A stretch of DNA of 64,000 bases from Candidatus Poribacteria bacterium (GCA_963663765.2 CAXXUA010000013.1:224001-288000); one strand, 5' to 3'; positions 7,331-59,700 are shown, counted from the first letter of the stretch. Translations and numbers: made by a program. The notes: a model not told the origin generated them from the letters alone.

Positions 7331-8371
7331 ATGAACAATTCGGTATTTCGTGTAGGTGTCACGCCAGATTTCCTCAAACCTGATAGCACTTCCGATTTAG
7401 ATAACATAGCAGGTCCACTGTTTGAAGAAGCAGGAATAGACTGGGAATATATTGAAGATAAAACTTCGACATTACATACAAAACAAATAAAAGACTATGA
7501 TGCACTATTGGTGTTAGGAGCAAAAATCACAGAAGAAACCCTTAACAACAATGAAAGACTTGCAATTATCGCAAGGTTTGGAGTCGGGTATGATAAAGTT
7601 GACGTTGCTGCATGCACTAAGTATGGTGTCTTACTGACAATTGCACCAGATGGTGTCCGAAGACCTGTCGCAACTTCAATTCTGACCTTTGTGCTATCTC
7701 TAAGTCATCAGTTGTTGAGAAAAGACAGACTCATCCGTTCGGGTAAATGGGAAGACACGAAAGACTTTATGGGTATGGGTTTAGTCGGCAAGACCCTCGG
7801 ACTTGTTGGTATGGGGAATATCGGTAAAGAGACATTCAAACTGGCAAAACCTTTCGGTATGCGTCATATTGCCTACGATCCATACATTTCTCCTGCAGAG
7901 GCAGCAAAGGTTGGCGTTGAACTTGTCAATCTGGATACTTTGATGCAAACCGCTGATTATGTTTGCATCTGCTGTCCGTTGAATGATGATACACATGAAC
8001 TTATTGATGCAAAGTGCATCAGCTTGATGAAACCGACAGCGTATCTGATTAACACTGCTCGCGGTCCCATTGTTGACCAAAAAGCACTCACAGACGCGCT
8101 TCAGCATCGACATATACAAGGAGCAGGTCTTGATGTCTTTGAACGAGAACCAATTGACGATGATGATCCACTCCTAAGTTTAGACAATGTTATCCTGACA
8201 CCACACAGTATCTGTTGGACCGACCAATGTTTTGAGGGGAACGGTAAGAGTGCTTGTGAGAGTATCATAAGTGTTGCTTCAGGACAATTGCCAAAGTATA
8301 TTGTGAACAGAGATGTAATTGACAATCCAATACTAAAGAAAAAACTCACGAACATAATAAATTCGCAATGA
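7331..8371 (+). CDS. D-isomer-specific 2-hydroxyacid dehydrogenase (SerA/GyaR-like)
   Basis: RFGVGYDKVD, Rossmann GMGNIG, NTARG (Arg), DVFEREP (Glu), TPHS (His). Confidence 0.9.
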   Translation: MNNSVFRVGVTPDFLKPDSTSDLDNIAGPLFEEAGIDWEYIEDKTSTLHTKQIKDYDALLVLGAKITEETLNNNERLAIIARFGVGYDKVDVAACTKYGVLLTIAPDGVRRPVATSILTFVLSLSHQLLRKDRLIRSGKWEDTKDFMGMGLVGKTLGLVGMGNIGKETFKLAKPFGMRHIAYDPYISPAEAAKVGVELVNLDTLMQTADYVCICCPLNDDTHELIDAKCISLMKPTAYLINTARGPIVDQKALTDALQHRHIQGAGLDVFEREPIDDDDPLLSLDNVILTPHSICWTDQCFEGNGKSACESIISVASGQLPKYIVNRDVIDNPILKKKLTNIINSQ

Positions 8372-27083: not shown

Positions 27084-28028
27084 TTAATTACTGTCCCCTC
27101 CTAAATAAAGTGTATCTTCATATCGCGCATCTATGTATTTATGTTTTTTAGGTGTTGTTGTTTTTTGTGTACCTTCATGTGGCTCTATGGATTCTGATGG
27201 TACTGACATGGTATTTTGCTGGATTCGGTGAGATTGTTGTCTAACAAACAAACCAATATGTCGGATTCCAGTTTTGATAGAATCAGCAGCGATCCAAATT
27301 GGGATGGGCATGTTATCAAAATGTAATATAATTTTTTGGAATTTGCGTGCATCAATTTTCCGAAGATCTTTTGCCAGTTTCGGTTCTTTAGATCTAACAT
27401 GCTTTAGAATTTCTATTCCTGTTTGTGTAGCAGAGGTACTCATCTGTTTGCCAATTTTAGGTAAATTTTCTCCTTCATCTACGATAAAAATCGTCTGATT
27501 GAATTGTGTAGGTATTATAGATTCTAACACATATCCCTTATCATCTATCAAGTAAAAATGTCTTTTATCGTCTGGTTTTTTATAAGAACTCTGCTTTTTT
27601 TTCATTTCTGAGGTATCCAATAATAAGAAATTTAGTCTTGCGTAAACTTTTCTTTCTGTTACTTCAATGGTAAGTTGACGTTTTGCTAAATTCTTGGTTA
27701 CCTCAACGTTTTTTAAATAACTCAGATTTTCTTTTAAGTATATCGCTGTTTGATATTCTGAATCTATGACGATATTGTCTAAATTATCACCAAGAACATC
27801 ATATATCTGTCCTTCAGTATAATGCAAATTTCCAAAAAGTGCAAATGATACATTTTCTATATTAAAGAATCCCAATATAATTTTACCAATAAACAACACG
27901 GTAATCAATAACATTCCTATAATGACTATTCGTCTGGCTCGGAAAGTAGATGTACGAACATGTTTGGGTTGAAATATTCTATGATTTGGTTCCCAATTTT
28001 TTACTTTTGTTTTCTTTAGAAATCTCAT
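27084..28028 (-). CDS. ftsQ: Cell division protein FtsQ/DivIB (divergent)
   Basis: Basic tail, single TM, POTRA-like FNIENV...GN...VEVTK...LTIEVTER, terminal YIDARY; located between murC and ftsA. Confidence 0.8.
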   Translation of the reverse strand: MRFLKKTKVKNWEPNHRIFQPKHVRTSTFRARRIVIIGMLLITVLFIGKIILGFFNIENVSFALFGNLHYTEGQIYDVLGDNLDNIVIDSEYQTAIYLKENLSYLKNVEVTKNLAKRQLTIEVTERKVYARLNFLLLDTSEMKKKQSSYKKPDDKRHFYLIDDKGYVLESIIPTQFNQTIFIVDEGENLPKIGKQMSTSATQTGIEILKHVRSKEPKLAKDLRKIDARKFQKIILHFDNMPIPIWIAADSIKTGIRHIGLFVRQQSHRIQQNTMSVPSESIEPHEGTQKTTTPKKHKYIDARYEDTLYLGGDSN

Positions 28029-28034
28029 AGTCTT

Positions 28035-29405
28035 TTAACCCAGATCCGTTGCACGTCTACTCAAAAAATCATGACCGACATTTACAATGTCTCCTGCCCC
28101 AAGTGTGATTACCAAGTCATTGGGTTGTGTAATTTCCATGAGACGTTCAACAACATCTGTCATGTGAGAAACATACATTACATTAGTATGTCCATGTGCT
28201 TTAATTGCCTTTGCTAAGTTTTCTCCTGTCACGTTTTCTATAGGTTTTTCACCTGCTCCAAATATTGACGTAACTATCAAAACATCTGCTTGATAGAATG
28301 AACGAGAAAATTCATCTGTGAGGTCACGCACGCGAGCATATCTATGCGGTTGAAAAACTGCAACAATACGTCGGTTATAACCTTCCCGGGCACCACGTAA
28401 AGCCGCTGTTAATTTTGCAGGATTGTGTGCATAGTCGTCAACAACCACTATATCATCTACCGTTCCTAATACTTCAAATCGCCGATGAACACCCTGAAAT
28501 GATTCTAGTGCATGCTGAATTTGGTCAAACGCAATATCCAATTCAAATCCTACTGCTATTGCTGCTAATGAATTTGATATATTATGTCGTCCAGGCATTT
28601 TCAGATGAACTATACCACATTCTTCACCATAGTAACGGACCCGATAATGAGAGGAAGGACCATCAATTACTATTTCCTCAGCAATCAGGTCAGCGCGTGT
28701 ATCAAGACCATAGGTCGTGAATTTCTTTTTTACCTTTGGGATAAGTTTCTGAATATTCTCTTGATCAAGACACAAAACAGCTCCGCCATAAAACGGTACT
28801 TTGTTGATAAATGTTAGAAACGTTTCTCCGATTTCTTCAATGTTGTTGTAATAGTCAAGATGATCCGCATCGACAGAAGTAACTACAGCAATAGTGGGAT
28901 AAATCATTTTGATTGAACCATAAGCCTCATCTGCCTCAATTACCATTACATCTCCATGTCCACTTCGTGCATTACTTCCATCAACCAACTTCCCACCAAC
29001 TACTACCGTTGGATCAAGTGAAGCTAATACAGCAGATGTCATAGCTGTAGTTGTAGTTTTGCCATGTGTACCACTGACAGCAATACTATATCGCATCCGA
29101 GTAATTTCATTCAACATCTCTGCTCCCATTATTATCGGGATTTTCGATAGCATCGCAGCTTGTAGTTCTGGGTTGTTATCTGGAATAGCAGGTGATCTGA
29201 CGACTACATCCGCACCATCAATATACGACGAGTCATGACCATACCAAATTTTAGCACCACATGATTTCAAATGTTCTGTGGTTACAGACTTCTTTATATC
29301 TGAACCTGATACTAGAAAGTCAAAGTCAAGAAGCACTTCCGCAATGCCACTTAAACCTGCTCCGCCTATACCAATGATATGAATATTTTGGGTTTTACCA
29401 AACAA
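28035..29405 (-). CDS. murC: UDP-N-acetylmuramate-L-alanine ligase
   Basis: IGIGGAGLSG, GTHGKTTT, DHLD, GVHRRFE, DDYAHNP, FQPHRY, GAGDI. Confidence 0.95.
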   Translation of the reverse strand: MFGKTQNIHIIGIGGAGLSGIAEVLLDFDFLVSGSDIKKSVTTEHLKSCGAKIWYGHDSSYIDGADVVVRSPAIPDNNPELQAAMLSKIPIIMGAEMLNEITRMRYSIAVSGTHGKTTTTAMTSAVLASLDPTVVVGGKLVDGSNARSGHGDVMVIEADEAYGSIKMIYPTIAVVTSVDADHLDYYNNIEEIGETFLTFINKVPFYGGAVLCLDQENIQKLIPKVKKKFTTYGLDTRADLIAEEIVIDGPSSHYRVRYYGEECGIVHLKMPGRHNISNSLAAIAVGFELDIAFDQIQHALESFQGVHRRFEVLGTVDDIVVVDDYAHNPAKLTAALRGAREGYNRRIVAVFQPHRYARVRDLTDEFSRSFYQADVLIVTSIFGAGEKPIENVTGENLAKAIKAHGHTNVMYVSHMTDVVERLMEITQPNDLVITLGAGDIVNVGHDFLSRRATDLG

Positions 29406-33566: not shown

Positions 33567-34685
33567 TTATCCTAATCTTAACGTACTCAACGCCAAGAGC
33601 ATTAAGATAAGTGCTACAATCCAAAAACGTATGACTACTTTCGATTCCTTCCATCCCGATAAAAGAAAATGAAAATGAAGAGGTGACATCTTGATTACAC
33701 GTTTTCCAAAGGTTCTATATGAGATAACTTGTGTAATGACTGATAAAGCTTCTGCTACAAAAATACCACCAACTATGATTAAAAGAAGTTCCTGCTTGAT
33801 GAGTAAAGCACATGTTCCAAGGGTTGCTCCAAGTGGTAATGAACCGGTATCACCCATGAACAGTTGAGCAGGATGCCCATTATACCAAAGAAAACCTAAA
33901 CCTGCTCCAGCCAATGATGCACAAAATATAGCAGTAACTTCTCCTCCAACAGGTAGGTGAGATAGGTTCAAATGTTCTGCAATTAGATCATGACTTGTCA
34001 TATACCCTAACGCTCCTATAGTCCCAGCAACGAAAAGAGTACATCCAATTGCTAATCCATCCATACCGTCTGTAAGATTCACGGCATTGGAAGTACCAAC
34101 GATAACTAAGGTAGCAAATGGTATAAAGAAAATTCCTAAAGTAGGTTGTAATGACTTAAAGAATGGTATATTTAGTACAGTACGACTTGTGGAATCATCA
34201 CCTTCTACAGGTCCCCATTGATAGAGATAAAACGCAATAGCTAAAGCACCAATTGTTTGGAGTAAGAATTTCTGCCAACCACGAAGTCCGAGTGATTGAT
34301 TTCTGCTAATTTTGCATATATCATCCAAAAATCCAAGACCTCCAAACCACAGTATCGTGAAAATCATGAGATAAATAAAGTGTTGATCTAATCTCGCCCA
34401 AAAGACTACCGAAATCAATACTGCAACAATGATCAGGATACCACCCATAGTTGGAGTACCTGCTTTAGTTTGGTCTTCACTGTGCCGTTGTGCTTTCTCT
34501 ACCTCCTCTTGAATATGTTCACCTATACGCAGCTGTTTCAACTTTCTTATCATAAACGGACCCAATACAAGTGATATAACAAGAGCTGTTGCAGTTGAAT
34601 ATACAGCGCGGAAAGTAATTGCCTTGAAAACGTCAAATGGTTGAAAATAGTTGCCAAGGTATTCATATAAAAGATGATAGAACAT
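33567..34685 (-). CDS. mraY: Phospho-N-acetylmuramoyl-pentapeptide transferase
   Basis: K.GTPTMGG, GFLDD..K, NAVNLTDGMDGL, PAQLFMGDTGSL. Confidence 0.95.
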   Translation of the reverse strand: MFYHLLYEYLGNYFQPFDVFKAITFRAVYSTATALVISLVLGPFMIRKLKQLRIGEHIQEEVEKAQRHSEDQTKAGTPTMGGILIIVAVLISVVFWARLDQHFIYLMIFTILWFGGLGFLDDICKISRNQSLGLRGWQKFLLQTIGALAIAFYLYQWGPVEGDDSTSRTVLNIPFFKSLQPTLGIFFIPFATLVIVGTSNAVNLTDGMDGLAIGCTLFVAGTIGALGYMTSHDLIAEHLNLSHLPVGGEVTAIFCASLAGAGLGFLWYNGHPAQLFMGDTGSLPLGATLGTCALLIKQELLLIIVGGIFVAEALSVITQVISYRTFGKRVIKMSPLHFHFLLSGWKESKVVIRFWIVALILMLLALSTLRLG

Positions 34686-34951: not shown

Positions 34952-36172
34952 TTATTCAGTTTGTAAGTCGGTCTTCAGTTTAGAGAAACTCGTCCCTGCT
35001 TGACTTAACAAATTCGTTGAATAGGAATAGATTAACCGATTTTTTTCTTGATGTGTTTCTTTTGCAAGTACAACCAATTTTGAAACTAATTCTGGAAATG
35101 TCTTACCCGCCGGTTCCCATAAATAAAAACTTAATGATCCAGGGATTGTGTTAATTTCGTTAATAAATACTTCTTCTTCTTCACTTACCAAGAAGTCCAA
35201 TCGGGCAATTCCTGCACAGTCAAGCACTTGAAAAGCTAAAGTCGCAAGGTCTTGAATATGTAACGTCAATTCATCAGATATTGGTGCAGGAATTTTCCGT
35301 TGTGCTCCTGCCATCCCATTTGCAACTTCTGTACTTAACGTGTCATCTGCTTCGGCTTCAGATTCTGTATCTGTGTGGATATACTTGTCGTCAAAACTAA
35401 GAAAATCAGTGCTTGCAATCGGTTGTTCACATACTGATGCAGAAGGAGGATTTGTTCCCAACACCGAGCAATTGATCTCATAACCGTTTTCAACACCTTG
35501 TTCTACTATGATACGACGACAATACCTACATGCAAGTTCAATGGCATCCTTCAACGTATCAACATCTTTAACTTGACTTACACCAATACTTGACCCGCTA
35601 ATCGCAGGTTTTACATACATAGGAAATGAAATCTCTTCTTCAATAACTTTGAGTATATCCTCACTCACAGTATCCCAATCATTTTTTGTAAAAGGCACAT
35701 AAGGCACGATTGGAAGACCATTCTCATTAAGTATTGCTTTCATCATTGTTTTATCCATACCTACGCCCGAACCTATGACGCCTGCTCCAACATAAGGCAC
35801 ATTCATCATTTCAAGAAGTCCCTGAAGCGTACCATCTTCACCGTGGACACCGTGAATCGTAGGAAAGACAACATCAATTGACAGTTCCTTTTTTTTTGCA
35901 AACAAACTTGTGCGTCTTGGTAATACACAAAATCTTGCTTGCGTTTCAAATTCAATGGACACCTTGTCAAAGTCTACAGCCTGAGGTAAGTTTCCTTCAG
36001 TAAAAGTTTTCAACTCCGATAGAGTCTCTCCAGTCAACCAAGCACCATCCTTAGTAATATATATTGGCGTGACTTCATGACTTTCATCTAATGCTGCATT
36101 GACCTGATGTGCAGTGATAATAGATACTTCATGTTCAGGAGATCGACCTCCAAAAATAAGTGCTACGTTCAT
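34952..36172 (-). CDS. ddl: D-Ala-D-Ala ligase family ATP-grasp protein (atypical subfamily)
   Basis: FGGRSPEHEVS, HG.HGEDGTLQG, MDK, VKPA..GSSIG, ARLDF, NEINTIPG; followed by SLSFYLW instead of the canonical FT..S.YP. Confidence 0.88.
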   Translation of the reverse strand: MNVALIFGGRSPEHEVSIITAHQVNAALDESHEVTPIYITKDGAWLTGETLSELKTFTEGNLPQAVDFDKVSIEFETQARFCVLPRRTSLFAKKKELSIDVVFPTIHGVHGEDGTLQGLLEMMNVPYVGAGVIGSGVGMDKTMMKAILNENGLPIVPYVPFTKNDWDTVSEDILKVIEEEISFPMYVKPAISGSSIGVSQVKDVDTLKDAIELACRYCRRIIVEQGVENGYEINCSVLGTNPPSASVCEQPIASTDFLSFDDKYIHTDTESEAEADDTLSTEVANGMAGAQRKIPAPISDELTLHIQDLATLAFQVLDCAGIARLDFLVSEEEEVFINEINTIPGSLSFYLWEPAGKTFPELVSKLVVLAKETHQEKNRLIYSYSTNLLSQAGTSFSKLKTDLQTE

Positions 36173-36217
36173 TTTTTTATCCTTTATAGCAAGATATAAT
36201 TGCGAATAATATATCTC

Positions 36218-37849
36218 TTAAACTGTTTCATCATAATTGTCTGGTAGGTCATTCTCAAAAAGAACTACATCTCCCGGTTTCAATCTTTTTTCAAGGTGTT
36301 GTTGTGCTTCTTTTAAGTTTGCAACAACTAAAATTTGTTGCTCTGGATAGTTATCATCTTTTAGTCCAGCTTTAATGGGGACAGTCCTTGTTGGACCAAC
36401 AAGAATTACAAGGTCACATACCTTAGCTGCTTCAGAACCAAAACGCTTATTCTCTTCATATTCAAGTTCACCCAGTTCTACCATCCCTGGAGTAACCAAC
36501 ACCTTTTTTCCATTTTTTTCACTTACAAAATCTGAAAGCACTTCAAGTGCTGCTTTTGCGCCTTCTGGATTAGAATTGAAACTGTCGTCGATTACGGTTA
36601 CACCAGCACCACCAGCGATCAACTGCAAACGGTGTGGAACAGGTTCTAAACGTAGAAGAGCATCTTGAATTTCTTTCAATGACATACCACAATTGAGTGA
36701 AACTGTCATTGCTGCAAGGATATTTGAAACGTTATGTTTTCCAAGAAGACGGGTTGTTATTTCTACGGAACGCTCCTTTTCATCCTCTACTGTAAATGTT
36801 AATCCTTTCTCACTCTGTTTGATGTTACTGGTTTTCAAACTTATTGTTGAATTTCCATTCATGTTATATTCTAAACCATAACGGATTACAGGAACACGAT
36901 CAGTTTTATTAGCCAAACCTGCACATATTTCATTATCTACATTGATTACCGCAAGTCCATCTGTTGGTAAGGCTTCAATCAGCTCATATTTTGCACGTGC
37001 TGTATTTTCAAGACTCTTGAATCGTTCTAAATGCTGTGGTCCAACAGCAGTGAGAATGCCAATTTCTGGAGGTGCGAGACGACACAATTCTCTAATATCA
37101 CCACGCTTATAAGCTCCCATTTCAACAATAAAGTATTCATGAGTTGGCAACAAATCTCCTCTGATTACCTTACATATCCCCATCGGTGTATTGTAACTGT
37201 CCGGTGTCATCAATGTGATATATTTCTGTGACAAAATCTGATGAAGAATATATTTAGTACTTGTCTTTCCGTAGCTTCCAGTTATTCCAATGATTTTCGG
37301 TTGTAGTTTTCTTATACGTTTTCTCGCATCGCGTAAATATGCATTATTTATCATTTGTTCTAAAGGCCAAATCAGATAACTACTTACTACAAGAATGGGA
37401 ACAGTCAGTTCGCTGAAAAGAAAAATACCTATTCGCCAACGGTTTTCTGTCACAAAAACTGCAAGCAAAGTCGCAACAACAACCTGTAACAAAAGTGCTA
37501 ATGTGTAAAGACGTTTTGCACGCGATGTGAATACGAGGGGTTTTTTTACTGTGGTCTTTTTACGCCATATAACTCTATAGGTTTGCAATGTTGACCAAAT
37601 AAGACATAAAGTTACAAAAAGCCAATCGGTTAAGATTTTAGGGAAAATCATCACAACCGAAAGCAATATTACAACACTTAGAATCTCTAAGGTTTCAAAG
37701 CAATGTCTTATATGTGTTGTGCTCCATTTCAGGTATCGACCCGGTTTATACCCATCAAGTTGTAATATATGTAATCCACCAGTCGTCCTGATGACAGTCC
37801 TTATAAGACATAAAACAATGAGTATATAAAAAAATATATTGCTAACCAT
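36218..37849 (-). CDS. murF: MurF-like Mur ligase with an N-terminal multi-pass membrane domain
   Basis: About 170-aa hydrophobic N-terminus (LHILQLDGY..RY..W; KKPLVFTSRAKRL), then GITGSYGKTSTK, SYNTPMG, EMGA, HLERF, DDSFNSNP, GMVELG, FENDLPD. Confidence 0.85.
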   Translation of the reverse strand: MVSNIFFYILIVLCLIRTVIRTTGGLHILQLDGYKPGRYLKWSTTHIRHCFETLEILSVVILLSVVMIFPKILTDWLFVTLCLIWSTLQTYRVIWRKKTTVKKPLVFTSRAKRLYTLALLLQVVVATLLAVFVTENRWRIGIFLFSELTVPILVVSSYLIWPLEQMINNAYLRDARKRIRKLQPKIIGITGSYGKTSTKYILHQILSQKYITLMTPDSYNTPMGICKVIRGDLLPTHEYFIVEMGAYKRGDIRELCRLAPPEIGILTAVGPQHLERFKSLENTARAKYELIEALPTDGLAVINVDNEICAGLANKTDRVPVIRYGLEYNMNGNSTISLKTSNIKQSEKGLTFTVEDEKERSVEITTRLLGKHNVSNILAAMTVSLNCGMSLKEIQDALLRLEPVPHRLQLIAGGAGVTVIDDSFNSNPEGAKAALEVLSDFVSEKNGKKVLVTPGMVELGELEYEENKRFGSEAAKVCDLVILVGPTRTVPIKAGLKDDNYPEQQILVVANLKEAQQHLEKRLKPGDVVLFENDLPDNYDETV

Positions 37850-38108
37850 TTTTTTCAGAAAGTGCTTTTGTAAAACTATTGTTGTACCAATTCTGGGTTT
37901 TTGACTTTATAAAATATTCTTATGTAGACTAGAACAGATAAAACTGAATAATCACTAATTACGTTTCTAAATTTCTGAAATTAGATAACAAAAACGCAAT
38001 GAATTATGGTGCTACAAGAAACATCAGTAGCAACATAATTTATTGCGCGCCATGTTCAGTATATATATCAACAATAAACCAAATGCATCAATGAATACAA
38101 AGGATCGT

Positions 38109-38855
38109 TTATGCTAAAAAGTCTTCCACAATTTGACAAAATTGTGGAAATTGATCCAAATACGAGAAATGTCCCGCATCCTTTAGAACGACTAAAGCAG
38201 CATCAGAGATTTCCTCTTCCATGATTTTACCGTAAGATACTGGCGTGTCTTTATCGTTTTCTCCCCAAATTAATAACGTCGATGCTTGGATCTTGGGTAA
38301 ATATGGTCGTAAATCTTGGTTTACCGATTTCACCATAGTAGGTCGCATCGGTCCTGCTTCACGATAGTCTTTTGAACCTGCATGTCTTGAGATATTATCT
38401 GCTAATCTGTGTCCAACCGGACCCAAACGACGTAACAAGCGACCAAACTTTGCAAGACAGACCCGTATGTAGTATTTTGCTGAACGCGGAGGAATAATTC
38501 CTGCACTATCTACTAAAATCAACTTATCTACTTTTTCTGGTTCCGATGCTGCGATCACAATAGAGATTCTACCCCCGTAGGAATGTCCAATTAGATGGGC
38601 TTTGTTAATACCATGTTTTTTGAAAAATGAAGAAAGGAGGTTTGAATAATCACCAGCATCCCATGCTTTCGGTGGAATCTCACTCAATCCAAATCCAGGC
38701 AGATCTAAAACATATACTTGATAAGTATTTGATAACCTATCAAATACAGGTTTAAAACTGTTCGCTTCACCACCCCATCCATGTAGTAACACCACGGGAG
38801 TGCCGCTCCCTTTTACTTGATAGGCAACTTTTAAATCATCAATCTCTGTAAACAT
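38109..38855 (-). CDS. Alpha/beta-fold hydrolase
   Basis: HGWG oxyanion loop, DLPGFG, GHSYGG nucleophile, GENDKDTP (Asp), AGHF (His). Confidence 0.9.
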   Translation of the reverse strand: MFTEIDDLKVAYQVKGSGTPVVLLHGWGGEANSFKPVFDRLSNTYQVYVLDLPGFGLSEIPPKAWDAGDYSNLLSSFFKKHGINKAHLIGHSYGGRISIVIAASEPEKVDKLILVDSAGIIPPRSAKYYIRVCLAKFGRLLRRLGPVGHRLADNISRHAGSKDYREAGPMRPTMVKSVNQDLRPYLPKIQASTLLIWGENDKDTPVSYGKIMEEEISDAALVVLKDAGHFSYLDQFPQFCQIVEDFLA

Positions 38856-38876: not shown

Positions 38877-40439
38877 TCATATTGATGTTTGCATTGAATG
38901 TATTGGCTTCTGCGTCAATATTTCCATAGCAACTTCTCTATCATCAAAGGGGTATCTTTTTCCATGTATTTCCTGATAATTTTCATGTCCTTTTCCAGCA
39001 ATTACTACAACATCACCCGAATTTGCATCCATAATTGCCTTACGAATTGCCTCACGTCTCTCAGAAATACACATATATGCTGCATCATGTGGCAAATTTG
39101 ACACAATCTCTGATATGATTTCATCAGGATTTTCAGTTCGGGGATTATCCGATGTAATCACACTAATATCAGCAAGTTGCGTTGAAATTGAACCCATTTT
39201 CGGACGTTTCCCCCGATCACGGTCACCCCCACAACCAAACACAGAAATTAACTTCCCTTCAGTGATACCACGAGCTGCTGTTAAGACATTTTCCAAACCA
39301 TCAGGTGTATGTGCATAATCAACAATAACTGCAAAATCTTTGTTGTGAGTTCCATTCAAGTCTATACATTCAAAGCGACCTGGAACGACTGTCTTTGCAA
39401 GACCTTCTCTAATTGCCTTAGCACTACAGTTATATCGTATACCAACACCCATCGCAGCAAGTGCATTGCAAATATTATACTCACCAAGTAATCCCAATTC
39501 TGCTTGTATCTCTCTGTTGGTTATACCTGAAACATTAACATGGTTTTGTTCATTCAAAACCGCGGTGAATGCTAACTTTCTTAATGACAATTCAACATTC
39601 TTTGCAATTAAATCTGCTTTATTTTCAATGCCGTAAGTTAGAATATTCGCGTCAGAAATATGTTGTTTTATTTGTCCTGTTGCAGAAGAATCAGCATTTA
39701 ATATGGCTAATCCACCTTGACATAACTGCTCAAACAACATCAATTTTGCAGCAAGATATTTTTCCATTGTACTGTGATAATCAAGATGATCTTGTGTTAA
39801 GTTCGTAAACACCCCTGTGTCAAATGTAAGTCCAGCTAATCGATGTTGTGCAAGACCTTGAGATGAGGTTTCCATAACAACATGTTCTATTCCAGAATCG
39901 GCTATCTGTTTTAGAATAGCATGCAGTTGGAATGCGTCGGGTGTAGTCAATAGTGCAGGTAACTCTAATGGGGAAGGTTGGTTGTCGTTTGAACTCTTAT
40001 TGTCTATGTCAATCGTATGACCAACTGTACCTAATACAGCGGCTTTTAAACCGTATGCTTTCAAAATTCCATAGCACAAATGTGCTGTGGAAGTCTTACC
40101 ATTCGTTCCAGTTATACCTATTAACTTTAGGCTTTTCGCTGGATTGCTATACCAATTGGCTGCACAAAGAGCTTGTGCTATGCGACCGTTAGGAGTGACT
40201 ACATTTGTCACATCATTTGGTAGGTACTGTATGTTTTTCTCAGATATAATTACTCTCGCACCGTTTCTTATTGCACCCTCAATAAAACTATGTCCATCAA
40301 CATTCAAACCTTGGTAACAGATGAACGCAAATCCATGTTCAATTTTGCGGTGATCACTGACAACTCCGACAATTTCTGGATTACGATTCCCTGTGACCTC
40401 TCTAACTTCTATTCCTTCAAGAAGTTTATTGAGTTTCAT
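38877..40439 (-). CDS. murE: UDP-MurNAc-L-Ala-D-Glu-meso-DAP ligase
   Basis: GTNGKTS, LTTPD, METSS, FTNLTQDHLDYH, VDYAHTPD, FGCGGDRD, DNPR (meso-DAP-type motif), AGKGHE. Confidence 0.96.
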   Translation of the reverse strand: MKLNKLLEGIEVREVTGNRNPEIVGVVSDHRKIEHGFAFICYQGLNVDGHSFIEGAIRNGARVIISEKNIQYLPNDVTNVVTPNGRIAQALCAANWYSNPAKSLKLIGITGTNGKTSTAHLCYGILKAYGLKAAVLGTVGHTIDIDNKSSNDNQPSPLELPALLTTPDAFQLHAILKQIADSGIEHVVMETSSQGLAQHRLAGLTFDTGVFTNLTQDHLDYHSTMEKYLAAKLMLFEQLCQGGLAILNADSSATGQIKQHISDANILTYGIENKADLIAKNVELSLRKLAFTAVLNEQNHVNVSGITNREIQAELGLLGEYNICNALAAMGVGIRYNCSAKAIREGLAKTVVPGRFECIDLNGTHNKDFAVIVDYAHTPDGLENVLTAARGITEGKLISVFGCGGDRDRGKRPKMGSISTQLADISVITSDNPRTENPDEIISEIVSNLPHDAAYMCISERREAIRKAIMDANSGDVVVIAGKGHENYQEIHGKRYPFDDREVAMEILTQKPIHSMQTSI

Positions 40440-43763: not shown

Positions 43764-43792
43764 ATTCTAACCTCACCATTTAACTATCATAT

Positions 43793-43809
43793 AGCAATAT
43801 TTATGCCAA
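43793..43809 (-). promoter_or_regulatory. Putative sigma54 (-24/-12) promoter at the head of the dcw cluster
   Basis: Minus strand TTGGCATAAATATTGCT has exact GG-N10-GC spacing; predicted +1 near 43782, just upstream of the GGTGAGG RBS and ATG 43763 of rsmH. Confidence 0.65.
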
Positions 43810-44024
43810 TATGTTGTTGTAGTCATATTCCTTTTGAATTGTACAAAACAATGGGAAACACACAGCATTTTTTATTGTATTTTATTAGTGACATTGTTAT
43901 AATGTTTAATGCAAACTATCGTCAGAATTCAACAAGAACTATCGCATAAATCAAACGGTTTTTCAGTTAAATAATACACAATCATTGTCAGAATATAAGT
44001 TTATTGCTACATGCGTAAAACACG

Positions 44025-44648
44025 ATGAGAATTGCAATCATGGGAGGCACCTTCAATCCTATACATTACGCACATTTGTTGAGTGCTGAACAAGTGCGTG
44101 AAGGATTAGAATTCAGCAAAATTATCTTTGTTCCCGCAGCTCGACCACCACACAAATTAAACCCAGAAATCATTGCTGCGGAGCATCGATATCAAATGGT
44201 CTTGCTAGCTACTGAAGACAACCCCTGTTTTGAAGTGTCACGAATTGAACTGGATCGTAAAGGCCCCTCATATACTATCCAAACAATTAAAGTATTACGC
44301 AGAATATATGGCGAAACAACCGATTTGGCATGGATCATCGGAGCAGATTCACTAATTGAATACAAAATATGGAAAGACTTTGATGAAGTACTTGAACAGT
44401 GCACTTTGATTGCAACAACACGACCAAATTACAACTTACAACAAGTTCCATTAGAAATATTAAATCGGGTTAAGACCTTTCAAATCACTGGGTTTGATAT
44501 GTCTGCAACTGCAATTCGACAACGTATCCGAAACAATATATCTATCCGTTACCTTGTCCCAGAAACAGTAGCAGATTATATAAACCAACATCAATTATAT
44601 AGGCCTGTCGGTCTTAGCAAAGAAAACACACATCAGAATATTAGATAA
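44025..44648 (+). CDS. nadD: Nicotinate-nucleotide adenylyltransferase
   Basis: GGTFNPIHYAHL, PPHK, SYTIQT, IIGADS...W, SAT.IR. Confidence 0.94.
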   Translation: MRIAIMGGTFNPIHYAHLLSAEQVREGLEFSKIIFVPAARPPHKLNPEIIAAEHRYQMVLLATEDNPCFEVSRIELDRKGPSYTIQTIKVLRRIYGETTDLAWIIGADSLIEYKIWKDFDEVLEQCTLIATTRPNYNLQQVPLEILNRVKTFQITGFDMSATAIRQRIRNNISIRYLVPETVADYINQHQLYRPVGLSKENTHQNIR

Positions 44649-44695
44649 AATAAAGCATACGCTTACACATCATAATTACTTGAAAGGATTTTACG

Positions 44696-44929
44696 ATGAA
44701 ACTCAAATGTAGTTTATGTGGAACACCTTATGAATTTGTCTATAAAAAAGAAAAAACTTTGCCAGAACACTTTCCATTTTGTAGTAACAGATGCAAGTCA
44801 ATAGATTTAGGAAAATGGCTAAACGAAGAATACATAATCAGTACACCACTACCTGAGGTAGAAGAATTAACTGATATTCAAAGACAAGTTCTTGATGTAT
44901 TAAAGGAAAAATCTGAAAAAAGTTGCTAA
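44696..44929 (+). CDS. yacG: DNA gyrase inhibitor YacG (zinc finger)
   Basis: CxxC...PFCSxRCKxIDLGKWLxEEY signature. Confidence 0.88.
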   Translation: MKLKCSLCGTPYEFVYKKEKTLPEHFPFCSNRCKSIDLGKWLNEEYIISTPLPEVEELTDIQRQVLDVLKEKSEKSC

Positions 44930-45604
44930 ATGATGAAACAATTAAAGGATATGACGAAAAATAAACCATTACCTGTAAACGGAAAAATACAATCATCGTT
45001 TCCTACAATAATTGAACTCAGGAAACAACCAAAGTCAATCGCTATACAGAATTATCTAATTGAAAAACTTGATCCTGAACGTTACGATCATGTCTTATCT
45101 GTTCAAGAGACGGCAGTGACGTTAGCTAAGCTACATAATGCTGATGTTCAAAAAGTCAGTGTCGCAGCACTCCTACATGACGTTGTAAAATGGATGACTG
45201 ACGATCAGTTGTATGCCGCTGTATCACGATACAATATAGAACTTGACCCAATTGAACAGAATATGCCTGCATTATTACACGCAATTGTAGGAGTGAAGTA
45301 TGCAATCGACTTGTTCCAAGTTACCGATTTAGATATTCTTGAAGCAATAAGATGTCACACAACAGGTAACGCATCAATGGGTATTACTGCAAAACTTATT
45401 TATGTCGCAGACTTTACCGAACCTACACGAGATTACATTGAAGCTGCCCAGGTGAGAAAACTTGCTGAAAAACATTTGAACCAAGCAGTTCATTATGTGG
45501 CACTAAGCAAAATCAAATTTTTGCTACAAAAGGGTTATATAATACATCCAAATACTATCCATACATACAACAGTACACTGGAAGAGAAAAATATTTCTTT
45601 TTGA
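44930..45604 (+). CDS. yqeK: HD-domain symmetrical Ap4A hydrolase YqeK
   Basis: RYDH..SV, LLHD..K, LLH..VG, AIRCHTTG, YVADFTEPTR; nadD/rsfS context. Confidence 0.88.
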   Translation: MMKQLKDMTKNKPLPVNGKIQSSFPTIIELRKQPKSIAIQNYLIEKLDPERYDHVLSVQETAVTLAKLHNADVQKVSVAALLHDVVKWMTDDQLYAAVSRYNIELDPIEQNMPALLHAIVGVKYAIDLFQVTDLDILEAIRCHTTGNASMGITAKLIYVADFTEPTRDYIEAAQVRKLAEKHLNQAVHYVALSKIKFLLQKGYIIHPNTIHTYNSTLEEKNISF

Positions 45605-47730: not shown

Positions 47731-48133
47731 AAATATAACATATAAAATATATTGAAAATTCATACAGATAAAAACATAAATATAAAAGTTTCCAAAAACT
47801 GAAAATATTTTTTCAAAATAAAGAAATATCACAATGAACATACACGTAGACAGACATAAGAGCAATTTATAAATGTTTCCAAGAAAAAGAAAAATGTTTT
47901 CATTTGAAAACATTTTGCAAGGATGGACGAAAAAACTGTATTATTTTATTCTTTGAAAGGCAGAGGTAAAGCGCAGTCGTATGTCTTTTGTAATATGATC
48001 ACAGTAAAAGATATCTTTTGTAACTCAAACAAAATAAAGATTAAATAAATATTTCTGTTATCCAATAGAGAAAAACGTCCGTAGGGACGGGATTTCCTTG
48101 TCCGAATACTACTTTACTATAAAGGAACTTTTG

Positions 48134-49186
48134 ATGTCAGATTCTACCAATATTCCTGATTTTCATAAACAGTCCCTCGTGATTGATTCACATAACGATT
48201 CCATCGTCGCACACATCCGCCGACGAAACATCAGTCTTGCAGACGAATACAAAAAGAACCCTAATCAACACAGCGGCACAATTGCTTATCTACGTGGACG
48301 AGTACCCTCAGAAGAAGATTCTATCGGCATTCAGCTCAATATACCAAAAATGCGTGAGGGAGGAATTGACGCTGCGTTCTTTGCTGTAGATGTAACACGC
48401 GCATGGAAAAATCATCTCTCCTATGCATTAGACGCTTTCGGGTGGTTCAGTACAGAGGTAGAAATCAACACCTCCGAAATTTCCATCATTCGCAATGCTG
48501 TAGACATTCAGAATGCTAAGGCTGATGGAAAAATCGCTGCTATACTCGCAATTGAAAACAGCGAAGCTGTGGAACGAAGTCTAAATATACTGAAGTCCCT
48601 TTATCTGCTCGGTGTGCGGTCTATCGGATTAACGCACAACCCAAACACATGGGCAGCATCGGGCAATGATGAAGGAGAAACCGGAGGAGGATTGACAAAA
48701 TTCGGTGTTCAGTTGGTGAAAGAAATGAATAGAATTGGAATGCTTGTAGATGTATCGCACATCAGTGAACGCGGGTTTTGGGATGTTTTAGATGTTTCTG
48801 ATGCACCCGTCATCGCCTCACATAGCAACTGCAAAACATTGTGCAACCATTCGCGTAATCTCACTAACGAACAACTTAAGGCAATTGCTGCCAACGACGG
48901 TGTGGTAGGCATCACCTTTGTACCAGGTTTCATCACGGTAGACGGTTGGAAAAAAACACCTACTTTCGCACAACTACTGAATCACATTGATTACGCAGTA
49001 GATATAGCAGGTATTGACCATGTAGGAATAGGTTCAGATTTTGACGGTGGCGGTGATTTACTCAAAGACGCAACTGAATACCCAAGAATCACTGATGGCT
49101 TAAAAGATCGGGGTTATTCAGATACAGCAACACAGAAAATTTTGGGAAGAAATATACTGCGTGTCTTTGAATCCGCATGTGGTTAA
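48134..49186 (+). CDS. Membrane dipeptidase, M19 family (amidohydrolase fold)
   Basis: DSHND, AIEN, GLTHN..N, GLT.FG..LV.EMNR.GMLVDVSH, ASHSN, RNL, GSDFDG. Likely ATG at 48134 after AAGGA (track start 48098). Confidence 0.92.
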   Translation: MSDSTNIPDFHKQSLVIDSHNDSIVAHIRRRNISLADEYKKNPNQHSGTIAYLRGRVPSEEDSIGIQLNIPKMREGGIDAAFFAVDVTRAWKNHLSYALDAFGWFSTEVEINTSEISIIRNAVDIQNAKADGKIAAILAIENSEAVERSLNILKSLYLLGVRSIGLTHNPNTWAASGNDEGETGGGLTKFGVQLVKEMNRIGMLVDVSHISERGFWDVLDVSDAPVIASHSNCKTLCNHSRNLTNEQLKAIAANDGVVGITFVPGFITVDGWKKTPTFAQLLNHIDYAVDIAGIDHVGIGSDFDGGGDLLKDATEYPRITDGLKDRGYSDTATQKILGRNILRVFESACG

Positions 49187-49268: not shown

Positions 49269-51152
49269 ATGAAATCAACATTTTCTACTCTGGTTATACT
49301 GTTTTTCTCATTCTTCTGTTTCACATATTACCCACTACCTGCATCTGCACAAGATTACACCAAATGGGAACTACCTCAAAATGCAAAGGTACGACTTGGA
49401 AAGGGAATGTTAATCGGAAATATCGCGTTTTCTCCTGATAGTTCACAGATAGCCGTCTGTTCAACCATCGGTGTTTGGATTTACGACGCAGTTAATGAAA
49501 AAGAACAACATCTCTTTAGAAAACATGCAGATAAATGGGTACGGTGTGTTGCATATTCACCTGATGGATCTACCATTGCAGTCGGTGATGGGGGGAGAGA
49601 TAACAAAAACTTATACTTGATTGATGCCACAACTGAAGAATTAATCACCAGACTAAAACATGATTATGGAAGCGTTTTTTCTGTTGCTTTTTCTCTCAAT
49701 GGAAATACCCTCGTCAGCGGAGGAAATAACTACATACGTATCTGGAATCTCAATACAATGGAAGAAATTGCTAATAATGTACATCCTAGGGGTAAGGTCG
49801 ATTCCATAGCCTTTTCTCCTAAGGGGAATACAATTGCAAGTGCTGACGATCAAAATGTATTCTTGTGGGATGCTACCTCTGGTGAGCAAAAAGCTACGTT
49901 CAGTGGTCATATTGCTCACGGACCAGGACAAATCTATTCTGTCGCGTTTTCTCCTGATGGGAAAACTGTCGCAAGTGCTGGTAAAGATAAAACCGTAATA
50001 TTATGGGATGTGGAAACTGAATCTATTCACCGAGTCCTTACTGGACATCGTGATGAAGTACTTTCTGTAGCATTTTCTCCTGATGGACAGATCATCGTTA
50101 GCGGATGTAAGAACAGTATAATAAGACTGTGGAACGCATCCACAGGTAGAGTCAAAGCTGCTCTCTCTGGACATAAAGGTGCAGTAAAATCAGTTGTGTT
50201 TTCACCTGATGGAAATTCTATAGCAAGTGCAAGCGAAGAGGATGGAACGGTAAAACTGTGGGATGTAAAAACAAGAAAAGTTAAACACACTTTTGATGGT
50301 CATTTGAGTTCTGTTCATGACATCGGTTATTCACCTGACGGCAAAATTATCGCTACTGACCATGATGAAAAACATTTATGTTTGTGGGATGCACAAACCG
50401 GACATCTCATTTCCAAACTTCTTAGTAATGAAAGCGATTCACTTGCATTTTCACCTGAAGGAAAAACTATCGTTGTGGGAAGAATCGATGGGTTAGGACT
50501 ATGGAATGTAGACACCAAAACGTATAAGCCAGTGCGCATCTCAAAAAAAGGAGTAGTATATTCAATTGCATATTCTCCAAATGGTAAAACTGTCGTCAGC
50601 GGAAGCGGAAATGAGTTGAATTTGTGGGATTTGACGACAAAAACACACATATCCACCCTTTCCGGGCATACCGATACAGTTCGTTCTGTCGTCTTCTCCC
50701 CCAGTGGAAACATAATTGCATCGGCAAGCGAAGACAAAACCTTACGTTTATGGAACGTAACCACTCAAGCTGAAAAAGGAATTCTAAATGGACACACTGA
50801 GAGAGTTCAAGCTGTTGCATTTTCTCCTGATGGTAAAAGACTTGTGAGTGGCGATATGGAAGGCGAAGTACGTTTATGGGATGCGACAACAGGAGAAGCA
50901 ATCTCTCTGCTTGCTAAACATGATTCGTTTGTACATTCAATCGCGTTTTCTCCTGATGGAAAAACCATACTTGGTGGAGGTGGGAATAGTTTTACAACAG
51001 TTTTGTGGGATGCAAAATCAGGTGAAATATTAGCAACCTTTGAAAAACATAACAGCACTGTCTACCATGCAATATTCTCTCCTGATGGTAAGACTATAGC
51101 CAGCACAGGACGGGATGGCGTAGTCCTGCTATGGGACAGTCCCACTGAATAA
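49269..51152 (+). CDS. Secreted WD40-repeat protein (14 blades, probable tandem beta-propeller)
   Basis: Signal peptide ending ASA|QD; 14 (A/V)FSPDG-like repeats with GH...WD boundaries. Confidence 0.92.
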   Translation: MKSTFSTLVILFFSFFCFTYYPLPASAQDYTKWELPQNAKVRLGKGMLIGNIAFSPDSSQIAVCSTIGVWIYDAVNEKEQHLFRKHADKWVRCVAYSPDGSTIAVGDGGRDNKNLYLIDATTEELITRLKHDYGSVFSVAFSLNGNTLVSGGNNYIRIWNLNTMEEIANNVHPRGKVDSIAFSPKGNTIASADDQNVFLWDATSGEQKATFSGHIAHGPGQIYSVAFSPDGKTVASAGKDKTVILWDVETESIHRVLTGHRDEVLSVAFSPDGQIIVSGCKNSIIRLWNASTGRVKAALSGHKGAVKSVVFSPDGNSIASASEEDGTVKLWDVKTRKVKHTFDGHLSSVHDIGYSPDGKIIATDHDEKHLCLWDAQTGHLISKLLSNESDSLAFSPEGKTIVVGRIDGLGLWNVDTKTYKPVRISKKGVVYSIAYSPNGKTVVSGSGNELNLWDLTTKTHISTLSGHTDTVRSVVFSPSGNIIASASEDKTLRLWNVTTQAEKGILNGHTERVQAVAFSPDGKRLVSGDMEGEVRLWDATTGEAISLLAKHDSFVHSIAFSPDGKTILGGGGNSFTTVLWDAKSGEILATFEKHNSTVYHAIFSPDGKTIASTGRDGVVLLWDSPTE

Positions 51153-56724: not shown

Positions 56725-59700
56725 CTAACTCAACGTCTCTTCTATTTCATCAGTGGGTTCTGGAAGTTCTTCTGGTTCAGGATTCGGGATTGCATTGCTT
56801 GTAACCTCAAGTTCCCTCCATTCAGAGAAACCCGTTCCAGCAGGGATAAGTCGTCCAAGAATTACATTTTCCTTCAAACCTCTGAGTAGATCTGTTTGTC
56901 CTTCTACTGCTGCATCAGATAGTACTTTACGTGTTTCCTGGAAGCTGGCTGCTGAAATGAAACTCTCTGTACTGAGCGATGCTTTGCTAATGCTTTGTAA
57001 CACTGGTTTTCCTGTTGCCGGTTCACCCCCATCTTGTTCAATGCGTCTATTCTCTGCATGGAATCTGTGTCGTGGAACTTCATCATTAGCGAAGAATTCA
57101 GTATCACCTACAGACAGTATTTTTATCTTTTGCAACATCTGTCGCACTATTACTTCTACGTGTTTGTCGTTGATGGTATTGTTTCCGGGATAAACTGTTT
57201 GTACTTCATCAACGAGATAAGCCCAGACTGCTTCTTCACCCTCAATTGAATGTCCGTTGATGGTAGTTCTTCCGATTTCAAGGATATCGTGTGGGTTCAG
57301 GAAACCATCAGTAAGGGGTTGTCCAGCTTCAATCCAGTCTCCATCGTCTACACGCCTTTTTTCATCAGTAATAGAATAGAGTCTGCTTTTTGTTGCCCCA
57401 TCAACAATTCTGTATTGTGGCACACCTGCTTTTTGACCTGTGAGTTGGACATTCCCATCAATCTCTGCGATTTCTGCAGCGTCTTGCCGTTTAGGAGGAC
57501 GTGCTTCAAAGAGTCCTGTCACCCGTGGTATGCCTGCTACGATGTCAAGGTTAGTTGTTTTTTCGTGTAACTCTGCCAAAGCCTGCTGTGCCTTAACCTT
57601 TTCACCTTCTTTGAGTGTACCGGAATACCCGTTGGGAATCAAGTGAGATACTCTGGCACCGTTTGAGGTTACTATATCAATACGGAACCTTTCTTTTAGA
57701 TCATCAACTTCAACGCCTGGATACTGTTCATAAGCAGTGGCATATTCCCAATCTTTAAGCGTTTGTCCAACAGTCAGAGTGCAGTTTGGATGAATTATAT
57801 TGGTAACTTCATAAGTATTCTTTGATGTGGCTGCAGTTACTTTCTTATAGTCTGCATCACTTAGGAATTCATCAACTGTGAGTTCGGTTTCAGCATCATT
57901 AACCTTTGTTACCTTGAAGACGCGTTCTGTATCAAATCCTTTGTAAAGCCTCAATGCCCGTTTATACTCGGTTTCGTCTATACGTTCACCAACAGTAAGT
58001 TGACATTCGCTATGATGAACTGCCAGAATATGGTAATAAAGTTTGTATTCTGGCGGCGGCGTGTCAGTCTCACGATGTGTTTTTACCAATGCTTTGTATT
58101 CCGAGTCCATTAGTACTTCTTCAGAATCACTTTCTTCAGTTTCAGGTATATAGAGTTTTTCAAAGTCAAAACCTCTGTAGCTTCTTCGGAATTTGTTGGA
58201 TTCAGATTGTGTGATTCGTTCATCAACAGCAACGGGGAAATCTGGATGATGTATTGCCACGACTTGATACAATCTTTCAACTTCAAACGCTTCCTCGTTT
58301 TTTGCGACATTTACATCAAATCCTGGGTATTGCTTCATTAAAGCCTTTTTCTCAGTATCGGTAAGGAGGATTCCAGGTTCTAACTTACAGTCCGTATTGT
58401 GTATTGCTGTAATCCGATGTTTAAGTGGGTCTACCGTAACACCACTAAATTTCTCACGTAAAGTTTCTAAGTTTGCACTTTCAATGAGTTCCCCAGGTTT
58501 CAGTGGACAGTCAGGATGCGTAACTTTTGTAACTCGAAACTGTGGGTTTGATAGTTTCTGCACTTCAAATGACTTATTTTCTTCCTGCGTGCGGCGGACT
58601 TCTGCAACAGTTAGTTCTTGTCCCTTTTCAATATCAACATCATCATAGACTTCTTTTACGGTATAAACAGGGTCACCAAATTCAATGTGGTATTGACTTT
58701 CTTCTTCAGGAGTTAATAGATCACCTATACTATGTGGAAAGTCGGGATCACTTACAGTTTCGATTTTATACTTCATTTGTGCTTTTTCTTTATTATTTTT
58801 CTTTTGCAAGTATTCACTTTCGGTAAGGATGTCTCCCTTATTAGTTTGATAAACCCATTCACCGTCAAAGGGACGGATTTTAGCACGCCATTCTTCTGCT
58901 TTGCTTTCAGTCAAAAGTCTACCTGGTCTTAACGAGGTCTTTGGTTTTGATACACTGATGACGGGATAACGGGCTTCATTACAACGGAATAGTGCGTATT
59001 TCTGAGAATACACATGGTATTCTTGTTCCGTAAGGTACTGACCCACTATCAATGAAGCATCTTTATCAGAAGCTGCTTCAATAACATCCGGACGGTTAAT
59101 CTGTCTGACTTCGTAATAGACAGTTTCTACTTCAAAACCGGGATACCTTTCATTGTTTTCCTGCTTCTGTTTTTCTGTAAGGAGTTCTTCTGGTTGCAGT
59201 TTACATTCAGGATGTTGTACCGATCTGACCTTATATTTCGGTTGGTCTGGGTGTTCAGCGACTTGTTGTGCAATCCACAAACCACTTTCTTCACGAACGG
59301 TGCGGCCGGGTATATAGTCACGGAAGCGAACATTCCCCGATGCCTTTGCCAGAATTTTACGAGCAAGACGTTCACTCATATCTTCAACAACACCACCCGT
59401 GTGGAAAGTACGCATTGTCAACTGCGTGCCAGGTTCACCAATTGACTGTGCTGCAATAATTCCTATTGCTTCACCTACATTCACAAATTGCCCTGAAGTT
59501 AAATCTGAACCATAGCAGGTTGCACACGCACCTTTTTCTGCTTCACAAGTGAGAATGGACTTTACACGTACACTGGGTACATCTATATCTTCAATGTGTT
59601 GTGCCATCTGAGGTGTGATGATCGAATCAGTTTCTACTAATACTTCCTCTGTTTCAGGGTGAATTATTGGTTCGACCGCGACTCTACCACTAATCTTATG

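Follow-up and report, generated by a model that had tools for sequence, protein, structure and literature searches.

A hydrolase, a membrane-anchored MurF and a Ddl of a distinct subfamily occupy the murF position of a dcw cluster in a Candidatus Poribacteria bacterium

We analyzed a 64,000-nucleotide stretch of the genome of a Candidatus Poribacteria bacterium (GCA_963663765.2 CAXXUA010000013.1:224001-288000), here called the window, whose positions are counted from its first letter. The minus strand carries a division and cell wall (dcw) cluster in the order mraW, a small open reading frame (ORF) of ftsL size, ftsI, murE, a hydrolase, a Mur ligase of 543 amino acids (aa), a D-Ala-D-Ala ligase (Ddl) and mraY, followed by murD, ftsW, murG, murC, ftsQ, ftsA and ftsZ. 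Eight of the 120 close relatives listed for this Mur ligase bear an organism name, in every case Candidatus Poribacteria. The three genes lying between murE and mraY at 34952-38855, hereafter the module, are the subject of this work. An earlier annotation made from the nucleotides alone (the sequence-only reading) had proposed that a hydrolase, a membrane-anchored MurF and a Ddl fill this interval and that the cluster has no canonical soluble murF or ddl. Window ORFs, Pfam and NCBIfam agreed with both points, all three ORFs being present and no further MurF-type ligase or Ddl being found within the 64-kb window.

The middle gene (36218-37849, minus strand) encodes the 543-aa ligase, which we term TM-MurF. 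Its ligase body, residues 166-543 plus the stop codon (36218..37354, minus strand), was delimited by Pfam, TIGR01143 and structure matches; Pfam placed Mur_ligase_M (PF08245) at residues 189-383 (E-value 8.3e-43) and Mur_ligase_C (PF02875) at residues 406-531 (E-value 3.4e-15), and no Pfam domain was found over residues 1-188. The P-loop GSYGKTS occupies residues 191-197, and the MurF-type motif DDSFNSNP (residues 421-428) aligned with DDSYNAN of E. coli MurF (1gg4), a structure whose residues 97-410 could be aligned with the ligase body (E-value 2.1e-37). Among solved sequences the first seven places (ten entries) went to MurF enzymes, the solved chains aligning only from residues 58-113 onward, and the ten best chains returned by Foldseek for the AlphaFold2 model (predicted local distance difference test score, pLDDT, 92.2; predicted template modelling score, pTM, 0.91) were all MurF, with about 370 aligned columns. 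TM-MurF, as judged by sequence and predicted fold, is a MurF-type ligase, and its substrates would be UDP-MurNAc-tripeptide and D-Ala-D-Ala. The TIGR01143 murF model gave 262.7 bits, short of its cut-off of 288.6, and matched over profile positions 60-403 only; residues 1 to about 57-96 of canonical MurF, that is domain 1, have no counterpart here and are replaced by a five-helix domain of about 165 residues.

This N-terminal membrane domain (residues 1-165; 37355..37849, minus strand) was delimited by hydropathy, AlphaFold2, loop charge and an alignment of TM-MurF sequences (A1). Hydropathy and AlphaFold2 both predicted five membrane helices inside residues 2-162, the helices of the model spanning residues 2-31, 53-68, 75-94, 109-132 and 138-182, in agreement with the N-terminus of about 170 residues with several transmembrane segments that had been read from the sequence. 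When the domain was compared with Pfam at E-values up to 10, using four members from different phyla, no family was matched. The first 178 residues were also searched against a protein library clustered at 50% identity, yielding 248 representatives at E-values up to 0.001. Sixty-five of the 150 matches listed are at least 480 aa long, every one of them with a P-loop at positions 175-260. The other 85 were considered as stand-alone membrane-domain proteins and rejected, as they are partial pieces ending mid-helix or within the P-loop; the P-loop directly follows the membrane domain in 38 of the 85, and in 25 of the 30 that reach at least 230 aa.

A locus scan restricted to one genome per species gave at least 590 pattern matches and at least 586 confirmed relatives, and the locus comparisons reported here rest on the best 80 of these, 74 of which gave full-length ORFs. 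Over 63 full-length relatives, the mean content of Lys plus Arg per loop was 5.4, 6.2 and 5.2 on one side of the membrane versus 0.1, 0.3 and 0.4 on the other; this positive-inside pattern indicates a predicted topology with the N-terminus out, the C-terminus in and almost no exposure on the outside. Two motifs are conserved on the predicted cytoplasmic face, LHxLQLxxY (residues 26-34, after helix 1) and KKPLVxTxRAKR (residues 102-113, between helices 3 and 4), and within A1 the residues Q30, Y34, T108, R110 and R113 are invariant.

Such a domain raises the question of the substrate, and one explanation is that the membrane MurF uses a tripeptide already attached to lipid (Lipid I or Lipid II without D-Ala-D-Ala). 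The hydrolase would then have a membrane lipid, or some intermediate carried on lipid, as its substrate. The exchange of domain 1 for an integral membrane domain with basic cytoplasmic loops and scant periplasmic exposure would suit it, as would the position of the hydrolase, described below, nearest to lipolytic family V enzymes and with 6i8w as closest solved chain. However, the order murE, module, mraY is the canonical order of the reactions, and the helix ahead of the P-loop still matches the end of canonical domain 1, as seen when residues 58-405 of the MurF structure 3zl8 are aligned with residues 159-532 of TM-MurF. We give this explanation very little weight.

The first gene of the module (38109..38855, minus strand) encodes an EstV-like alpha/beta serine hydrolase of 248 aa (Abhydrolase_1, E-value 5.7e-29 in Pfam), in which neither a signal peptide nor a membrane helix was evident. 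It displays an oxyanion motif HGWG and a triad of the nucleophile Ser92 (in GHSYGG), Asp201 and His229; residues 160-164 form a further motif of the family, GSxDY, which is invariant or almost so among module hydrolases. In an alignment of 61 module hydrolases (A2) S92, D201, H229, G26 and W27 are invariant, while H25 and G28 are conserved in at least 90%; the intact Ser-Asp-His triad noticed beforehand is thus a property of all 61. The nearest solved chain is 6i8w (E-value 1.6e-29), which we take to be a membrane-bound phospholipase. The top NCBIfam model for the window hydrolase is that of the EstV family lipase (NF058580), matched nearly at full length (positions 12-226 of 230) with 123.3 bits versus a cut-off of 300, which was missed; it is also the sole model matched by all 61 module hydrolases. 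EstV itself is an H. pylori short-chain carboxylesterase, described in vitro only (PMC3741291).

Hydrolase relatives longer than 434 aa gave 46 matches, and the top five (P0271, P0272, P0273, P0275 and P0276; two of them labeled Chloroflexota) proved to be TM-MurF::hydrolase fusions of 804-892 aa. All run from a membrane domain carrying both cytoplasmic motifs through the MurF ligase and a low-complexity linker of 35-90 residues to a C-terminal hydrolase. The five fusions form a single clade (Shimodaira-Hasegawa-like approximate likelihood ratio test 93), hence they probably derive from one fusion event. The fusion order, with the hydrolase at the C-terminus, rules out read-through of the usual gene order, and the same C-terminal position places the hydrolase in the cytoplasm. 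Conserved adjacency (see below) and natural fusions together show, at the level of sequence, that the hydrolase and TM-MurF are functionally coupled. No Ddl fused to TM-MurF or to the hydrolase was found among 46 long Ddl relatives, an absence that is weak evidence. Those long relatives (P0317-P0334 among them) have unrelated architectures, with MurG, MurB, MurC, an MFS transporter, Ser/Thr kinase-PASTA domains or glutamyl-tRNA synthetase (GluRS) as partners.

Gene order was followed by tblastn of the window proteins against the 80 loci. Hydrolase, TM-murF and ddl occur in the same order and on the same strand in 59 of the 68 loci whose flanking sequence is long enough on either side. The hydrolase lies at most 700 nt upstream of TM-murF in 70/75 loci with room for it (in L003 it lies beyond, at about 821-825 nt), and ddl at most 400 nt downstream in 63/72, with median gaps of 16 nt between hydrolase and murF and 26 nt between murF and ddl. 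A dedicated three-gene unit, as the sequence-only reading suspected, is well borne out by these figures, the linkage of the hydrolase being conserved. No fourth conserved gene or regulator was found in the 80 loci; the next most frequent family was seen in 10 loci of a single lineage, and what lies on either side is housekeeping genes of no related function. When pairwise identities were compared over 50 loci, those of the three genes were strongly correlated (Mantel r 0.82-0.84, with 0/999 permutations equal), a result that fits inheritance as a unit, although genes sharing genomes would correlate regardless.

A comparable grouping in Helicobacter and Campylobacter had been pointed out beforehand, and the parallel held: besides the match of all 61 hydrolases to the EstV model, excerpts of published work describe the elements of such an arrangement. 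H. pylori MurF is there reported to have four N-terminal transmembrane domains (PMC9448923) and to belong to membrane-spanning shape complexes (PMC9507126, PMC12468929), and its gene HP0740 is given a length of 1485 bp (PMC6501431). In C. jejuni, the alpha/beta-fold hydrolase Cj0796c adjoins murF (Cj0795c), and ddl (Cj0798c) lies a short way upstream. A role in peptidoglycan synthesis is suggested in that study, which reports that deletion of Cj0796c failed and that the gene may be essential (PMC5530802). An arrangement of this kind has already been seen in H. pylori and C. jejuni without a mechanism. A Protein Atlas cluster of 173 aa whose commonest phylum is Campylobacterota (score 0.89) is a lead only. 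Among open-licence PMC papers and bioRxiv preprints no description was found of the breadth of the module, the motifs of the membrane domain, the Ddl signature or the fusions, and nothing was found on HP0739 in the open-licence literature.

The third gene (34952..36172, minus strand) encodes a Ddl of 406 aa that belongs to a distinct module subfamily according to NCBIfam, an alignment of module Ddl sequences (A3), AlphaFold2 and Foldseek. It passed the curated cut-offs of two Ddl models (NF002528, 344.8 versus 262; TIGR01205, 289.5 versus 245.65), and all 56 module Ddl matched both at E-values up to 1e-20. Its scores against the Van models lie far under their cut-offs: 193/550 for D-Ala-D-Lac, 219/520 for D-Ala-D-Ser and 223/495 for VanG. 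Foldseek returned Ddl structures as best matches to the AlphaFold2 model (pLDDT 88.7), with target-normalised TM-scores of 0.81-0.89 in the ten best chains. A3, comprising 56 sequences, contains 35 invariant columns that include catalytic and specificity residues, namely Glu13, His107, Ser194/195, Lys263, Tyr264, Arg324, Asp326, Glu339, Asn341 and Gly345. We take E13, H107, S194/S195, K263, Y264, R324, D326, E339 and N341 to be equivalent, in this order, to E15, H63, S150, K215, Y216, R255, D257, E270 and N272 of DdlB, S194/S195 standing for S150. Glu13, Ser194 and Tyr264 would presumably be the Glu15-Ser150-Tyr216 triad of DdlB, tied to dipeptide rather than depsipeptide synthesis.

Two regions of this Ddl are nonetheless unusual, and both had been singled out as changed substrate-determining regions. 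The first is the NTIPGSLSFYLW loop (35117..35152, minus strand), identified by translation and by alignment to 3n8d and 2i87, which lacks four of the residues that S. aureus Ddl has after NTxPG and so does not reach the canonical loop length. The loop had been assigned to 35117-35161; it is real, but the longer span takes in three extra residues upstream. All 57 of the module Ddl sequences aligned this far have the same short length, including those where the module adjoins mraY, thus making the NTIPGSLSFYLW loop a signature of the subfamily, and Tyr350 within it is invariant. The second is the acidic insert HTDTESEAEADDTLSTE (residues 266-285; 35318..35377, minus strand, by translation), which follows Lys263-Tyr264 of the omega loop just as described earlier. 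In this form it belongs to this lineage only; L003 has a shorter version, L001 and L002 lack it, length and composition vary across the 57 loci, and residues 269-285 have a pLDDT below 50, so that the insert is predicted to be disordered. The family consensus has an omega loop about 10 residues longer than in Ddl of the DdlA type, with a conserved KGM-type motif, and the acidic stretch lies within this added segment. Both features therefore stand as observations, but the short loop is family-wide and every specificity residue is kept, and the non-standard dipeptide that had been suggested from them found no support: the Ddl cut-offs were passed, those of Van missed, and the catalytic residues are invariant. 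D-Ala-D-Ala would accordingly be the expected product, to judge from the residues retained.

The conserved changes in the two loops, a shortened NTxPG loop and an extended omega loop, bear on the idea of an alternative stem-peptide or resistance module, in which the Ddl would make a non-standard dipeptide or depsipeptide, MurF would install it and the hydrolase would clear the standard or wrong product. Some van clusters do pair a dedicated MurF with the ligase, and a VanX-type M15 D-Ala-D-Ala dipeptidase gene directly follows ddl in two Bacilli loci (L019:10110-10835 and L022:9930-10652), the next gene in L019 encoding a class B penicillin-binding protein. Moreover, the hydrolase is of esterase type, EstV being a short-chain carboxylesterase in the excerpts cited (PMC3741291), and a depsipeptide bond is an ester. 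Against this stand the invariance of Glu13, Ser194 and Tyr264 in 56 module Ddl, the model scores just given, and the occurrence of the M15 peptidase in just 2/80 loci. Within the window the module has no linked VanH, VanX, VanT or VanRS, and in Poribacteria and NC10 its place in the cluster is that of a housekeeping gene. The related Campylobacter genes cj0795c and cj0798c appear in a gene list within a section on predicted or experimentally identified essential genes (PMC3229698). Altogether we hold an alternative stem peptide to be unlikely.

Two genes of the window might recall van partners without being linked to the module, and neither was counted as such: a D-isomer 2-hydroxyacid dehydrogenase (7331-8371), about 27 kb away, as a VanH analogue, and an M19 membrane dipeptidase (48098-49186), about 9 kb away, as a VanX analogue.

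The 74 full-length TM-MurF carry eight phylum labels altogether, Bacillota (47), Bacteroidota (17), Poribacteria (3), Chloroflexota (2) and one each of Balneolota, Methylomirabilota (NC10), Actinomycetota and Pseudomonadota, with 2 unlabeled; some of the taxon labels of metagenome-assembled genomes (MAGs) are doubtful. In the TM-MurF tree the groups mostly track taxonomy, with a Bacteroidales clade nested within Bacillota and three Bacilli nested among Clostridia. The row of L067 in this tree is a mis-called long ORF, and the true L067 gene carries the motifs. Three loci labeled Staphylococcus and Senegalimassilia (L063, L064 and L080) nest within the Muribaculaceae/Bacteroidales clade and are, judging by this placement, probably mis-binned MAG contigs. 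As to genomic context, a module set between murE and mraY was otherwise seen only in Poribacteria (3/3 further loci) and in NC10 (L067); in L060, a Chloroflexota chromosome, an MraY-type GT4 gene (L060:8608-9588) lies between TM-murF and ddl.

This distribution is where a further explanation has to be weighed, according to which the module is an accessory set of paralogues, the canonical murF and ddl lying elsewhere in the genome and the module serving a specialised, spatially restricted or condition-specific synthesis of precursor. Our view is limited to 64 kb, a dcw context was seen in only 5/80 loci (the three Poribacteria, NC10 and L060), and the nesting of Bacteroidales in Bacillota and of Bacilli in Clostridia would fit lateral transfer into lineages that have the canonical genes; the reported presence of H. 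pylori MurF in shape-determining membrane complexes, as excerpted above, points the same way. Conversely, the exact murF position is filled in four Poribacteria sequences and in NC10, and the tree groups mostly by taxonomy. Besides, murF and ddl commonly lie outside the dcw cluster in Firmicutes and Bacteroidota anyway. For Bacteroidota this is also stated in a published account (PMC13726279). An accessory role seems to us improbable, with slightly more in its favor than an alternative stem peptide.

In our opinion the module probably serves housekeeping: it would perform, at the membrane, a variant of the final cytoplasmic reaction in making the peptidoglycan precursor, and not supply an alternative stem peptide. 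The MurF-slot position, the absence of a second MurF or Ddl in the window and the intact Ddl residues favor this housekeeping reading, as do the MurF-type motif and fold, the conservation of the module, the fusions, the positive-inside topology and the published observations on H. pylori and C. jejuni. Ddl would make D-Ala-D-Ala, its catalytic and specificity residues being intact; the membrane MurF, located next to MraY, would then join the dipeptide to UDP-MurNAc-tripeptide on the cytoplasmic side of the inner membrane. In place of the lost nucleotide-binding domain, the basic cytoplasmic loops of the five-helix domain probably bind the nucleotide-sugar end of the substrate, or else they pass the product to MraY. 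The EstV-like hydrolase, to which adjacency and fusions couple MurF, would act as its catalytically intact cytoplasmic partner, and our best guess for its role is hydrolytic quality control or trimming of the dipeptide or pentapeptide precursor. The dedicated, possibly membrane-localised route for the terminal dipeptide suggested by the sequence-only reading therefore survives as a dedicated unit with a membrane-embedded MurF, and its non-standard product is not supported. What the window holds is most likely an ordinary dcw cluster, complete but for the variant form of its murF/ddl unit, and it gives no evidence of an exotic cell wall.

Several observations weigh against this housekeeping reading. 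A canonical soluble murF or ddl may exist beyond the 64 kb in view, and the dcw context is confined to the few loci named above. TM-MurF misses TIGR01143 and lacks the canonical nucleotide-binding domain, so that its substrate is a prediction, and the shorter NTxPG loop and the extra KGM-type omega segment could each alter second-site specificity. The M15 dipeptidase placed after ddl in L019 and L022 is, by analogy, what a system with a replacement dipeptide would carry. Five loci (L011, L055, L044, L050 and L057) lack the hydrolase and/or ddl beside TM-murF. The likeness to the H. pylori and C. jejuni systems is one of reported architecture and gene neighborhood, so that homology of the membrane domains is putative, and the failed deletion of Cj0796c could reflect a polar effect on murF.

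A bolder version, to which we attach only a small chance, is that hydrolase, MurF and Ddl form one membrane-bound machine in which the hydrolase step is required for making or checking the pentapeptide, or else that MurF works on lipid-linked tripeptide; within such a machine the hydrolase might remove mis-made ester or non-D-Ala termini ahead of MraY. Were either true, a large share of bacteria, hitherto unrecognised and with H. pylori and C. jejuni included, would finish the precursor in a manner unlike the E. coli scheme.

Regarding the surroundings of the module, its upstream neighbor is murE (38877..40439, minus strand; NF001126, 545.6 bits versus a cut-off of 373) and its downstream neighbor mraY (33567..34685, minus strand; TIGR00445, 344.2 bits versus a cut-off of 192). 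The spacer between hydrolase and murF (37850..38108, minus strand) is 259 nt long, unusually so against the family median of 16 nt, and contains on the minus strand, at about 37990-38048, a long hairpin followed by a U-run (-27.5 kcal/mol, z -5.45, 0/200 shuffles equal). The hairpin core is conserved in the long hydrolase-murF spacer of L003, and the element has the look of a transcription terminator or attenuator within the cluster. The 266-nt spacer between ddl and mraY showed no unusual fold (z 0.94), an Rfam scan of the window gave no match, and promoter and terminator consensus scans of the window returned chance numbers (24 versus 24.1 expected and 5 versus 4.1 expected, respectively).

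The position of ddl in this dcw cluster is before mraY and not near ftsQ, no murB lies between murC and ftsQ, and no minus-strand ORF of mraZ size was seen upstream of mraW (27084-29405, 43764-44930). Elsewhere in the window, RpoC (56725-62337) is very long, 1870 aa, and the spread of its domain 5 across residues 814-1746 points to a large insertion. A WD40 repeat protein of 627 aa is encoded at 49269-51152.

MurF of the textbooks is a soluble cytoplasmic enzyme. The form described here is integral to the membrane and begins with a hitherto undescribed domain outside any Pfam family; it represents a large family travelling with a Ddl subfamily and a hydrolase. The hydrolase becomes a candidate for supplying an activity so far missing from the synthesis of the peptidoglycan precursor, and it might serve as a narrow-spectrum drug target.

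Compared with canonical MurF (E. coli 1gg4, P. aeruginosa 4cvk, A. baumannii 4qf5 and T. maritima 3zl8), TM-MurF shares the central and C-terminal domains, the P-loop, the DDxxNxNP motif and the murE-mraY position, whereas the canonical enzymes have domain 1 where TM-MurF has its five membrane helices. EstV and other enzymes of lipolytic family V share with the module hydrolase the alpha/beta fold, the HGxG oxyanion motif and the Ser-Asp-His triad; the module hydrolase differs in falling under the equivalog cut-off and in its family-specific GSxDY motif. With Ddl of the DdlA type (S. aureus 2i87/3n8d, Salmonella 3i12) the module Ddl has in common the fold and all catalytic residues (profile E-value 1e-102), but its NTxPG loop is shorter, its omega loop longer and, in this lineage, an acidic disordered insert is added. 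The van clusters (VanA or VanC with VanX, VanH or VanT) resemble the module in joining a Ddl-family ligase to accessory genes, M15 being among these in the two loci already mentioned; they differ in that the module ligase scores far under the Van cut-offs, in that no dehydrogenase, racemase or VanRS is linked to it, and in its housekeeping position.

The closest likeness in arrangement is that with H. pylori and C. jejuni, where, according to the publications cited, H. pylori likewise has a MurF with N-terminal membrane helices and C. jejuni an alpha/beta hydrolase adjoining murF, with ddl near. The module hydrolases are nearest to the EstV model, which was built on the H. pylori enzyme family, the window hydrolase remaining under its cut-off, and the window Ddl matches the solved Ddl of H. 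pylori (2pvp) only distantly (E-value 3e-24). The order differs, being ddl, then hydrolase and murF in C. jejuni versus hydrolase, murF and ddl here, and four helices are reported for the H. pylori MurF versus five predicted in our case. Finally, the MurC-Ddl fusions of Chlamydiales and the MurE-MurF fusions are natural fusions that reveal cooperating steps, as the TM-MurF::hydrolase fusions do, although in the latter the partner is a hydrolase and not, as in MurC-Ddl and MurE-MurF, a neighboring enzyme of the pathway.

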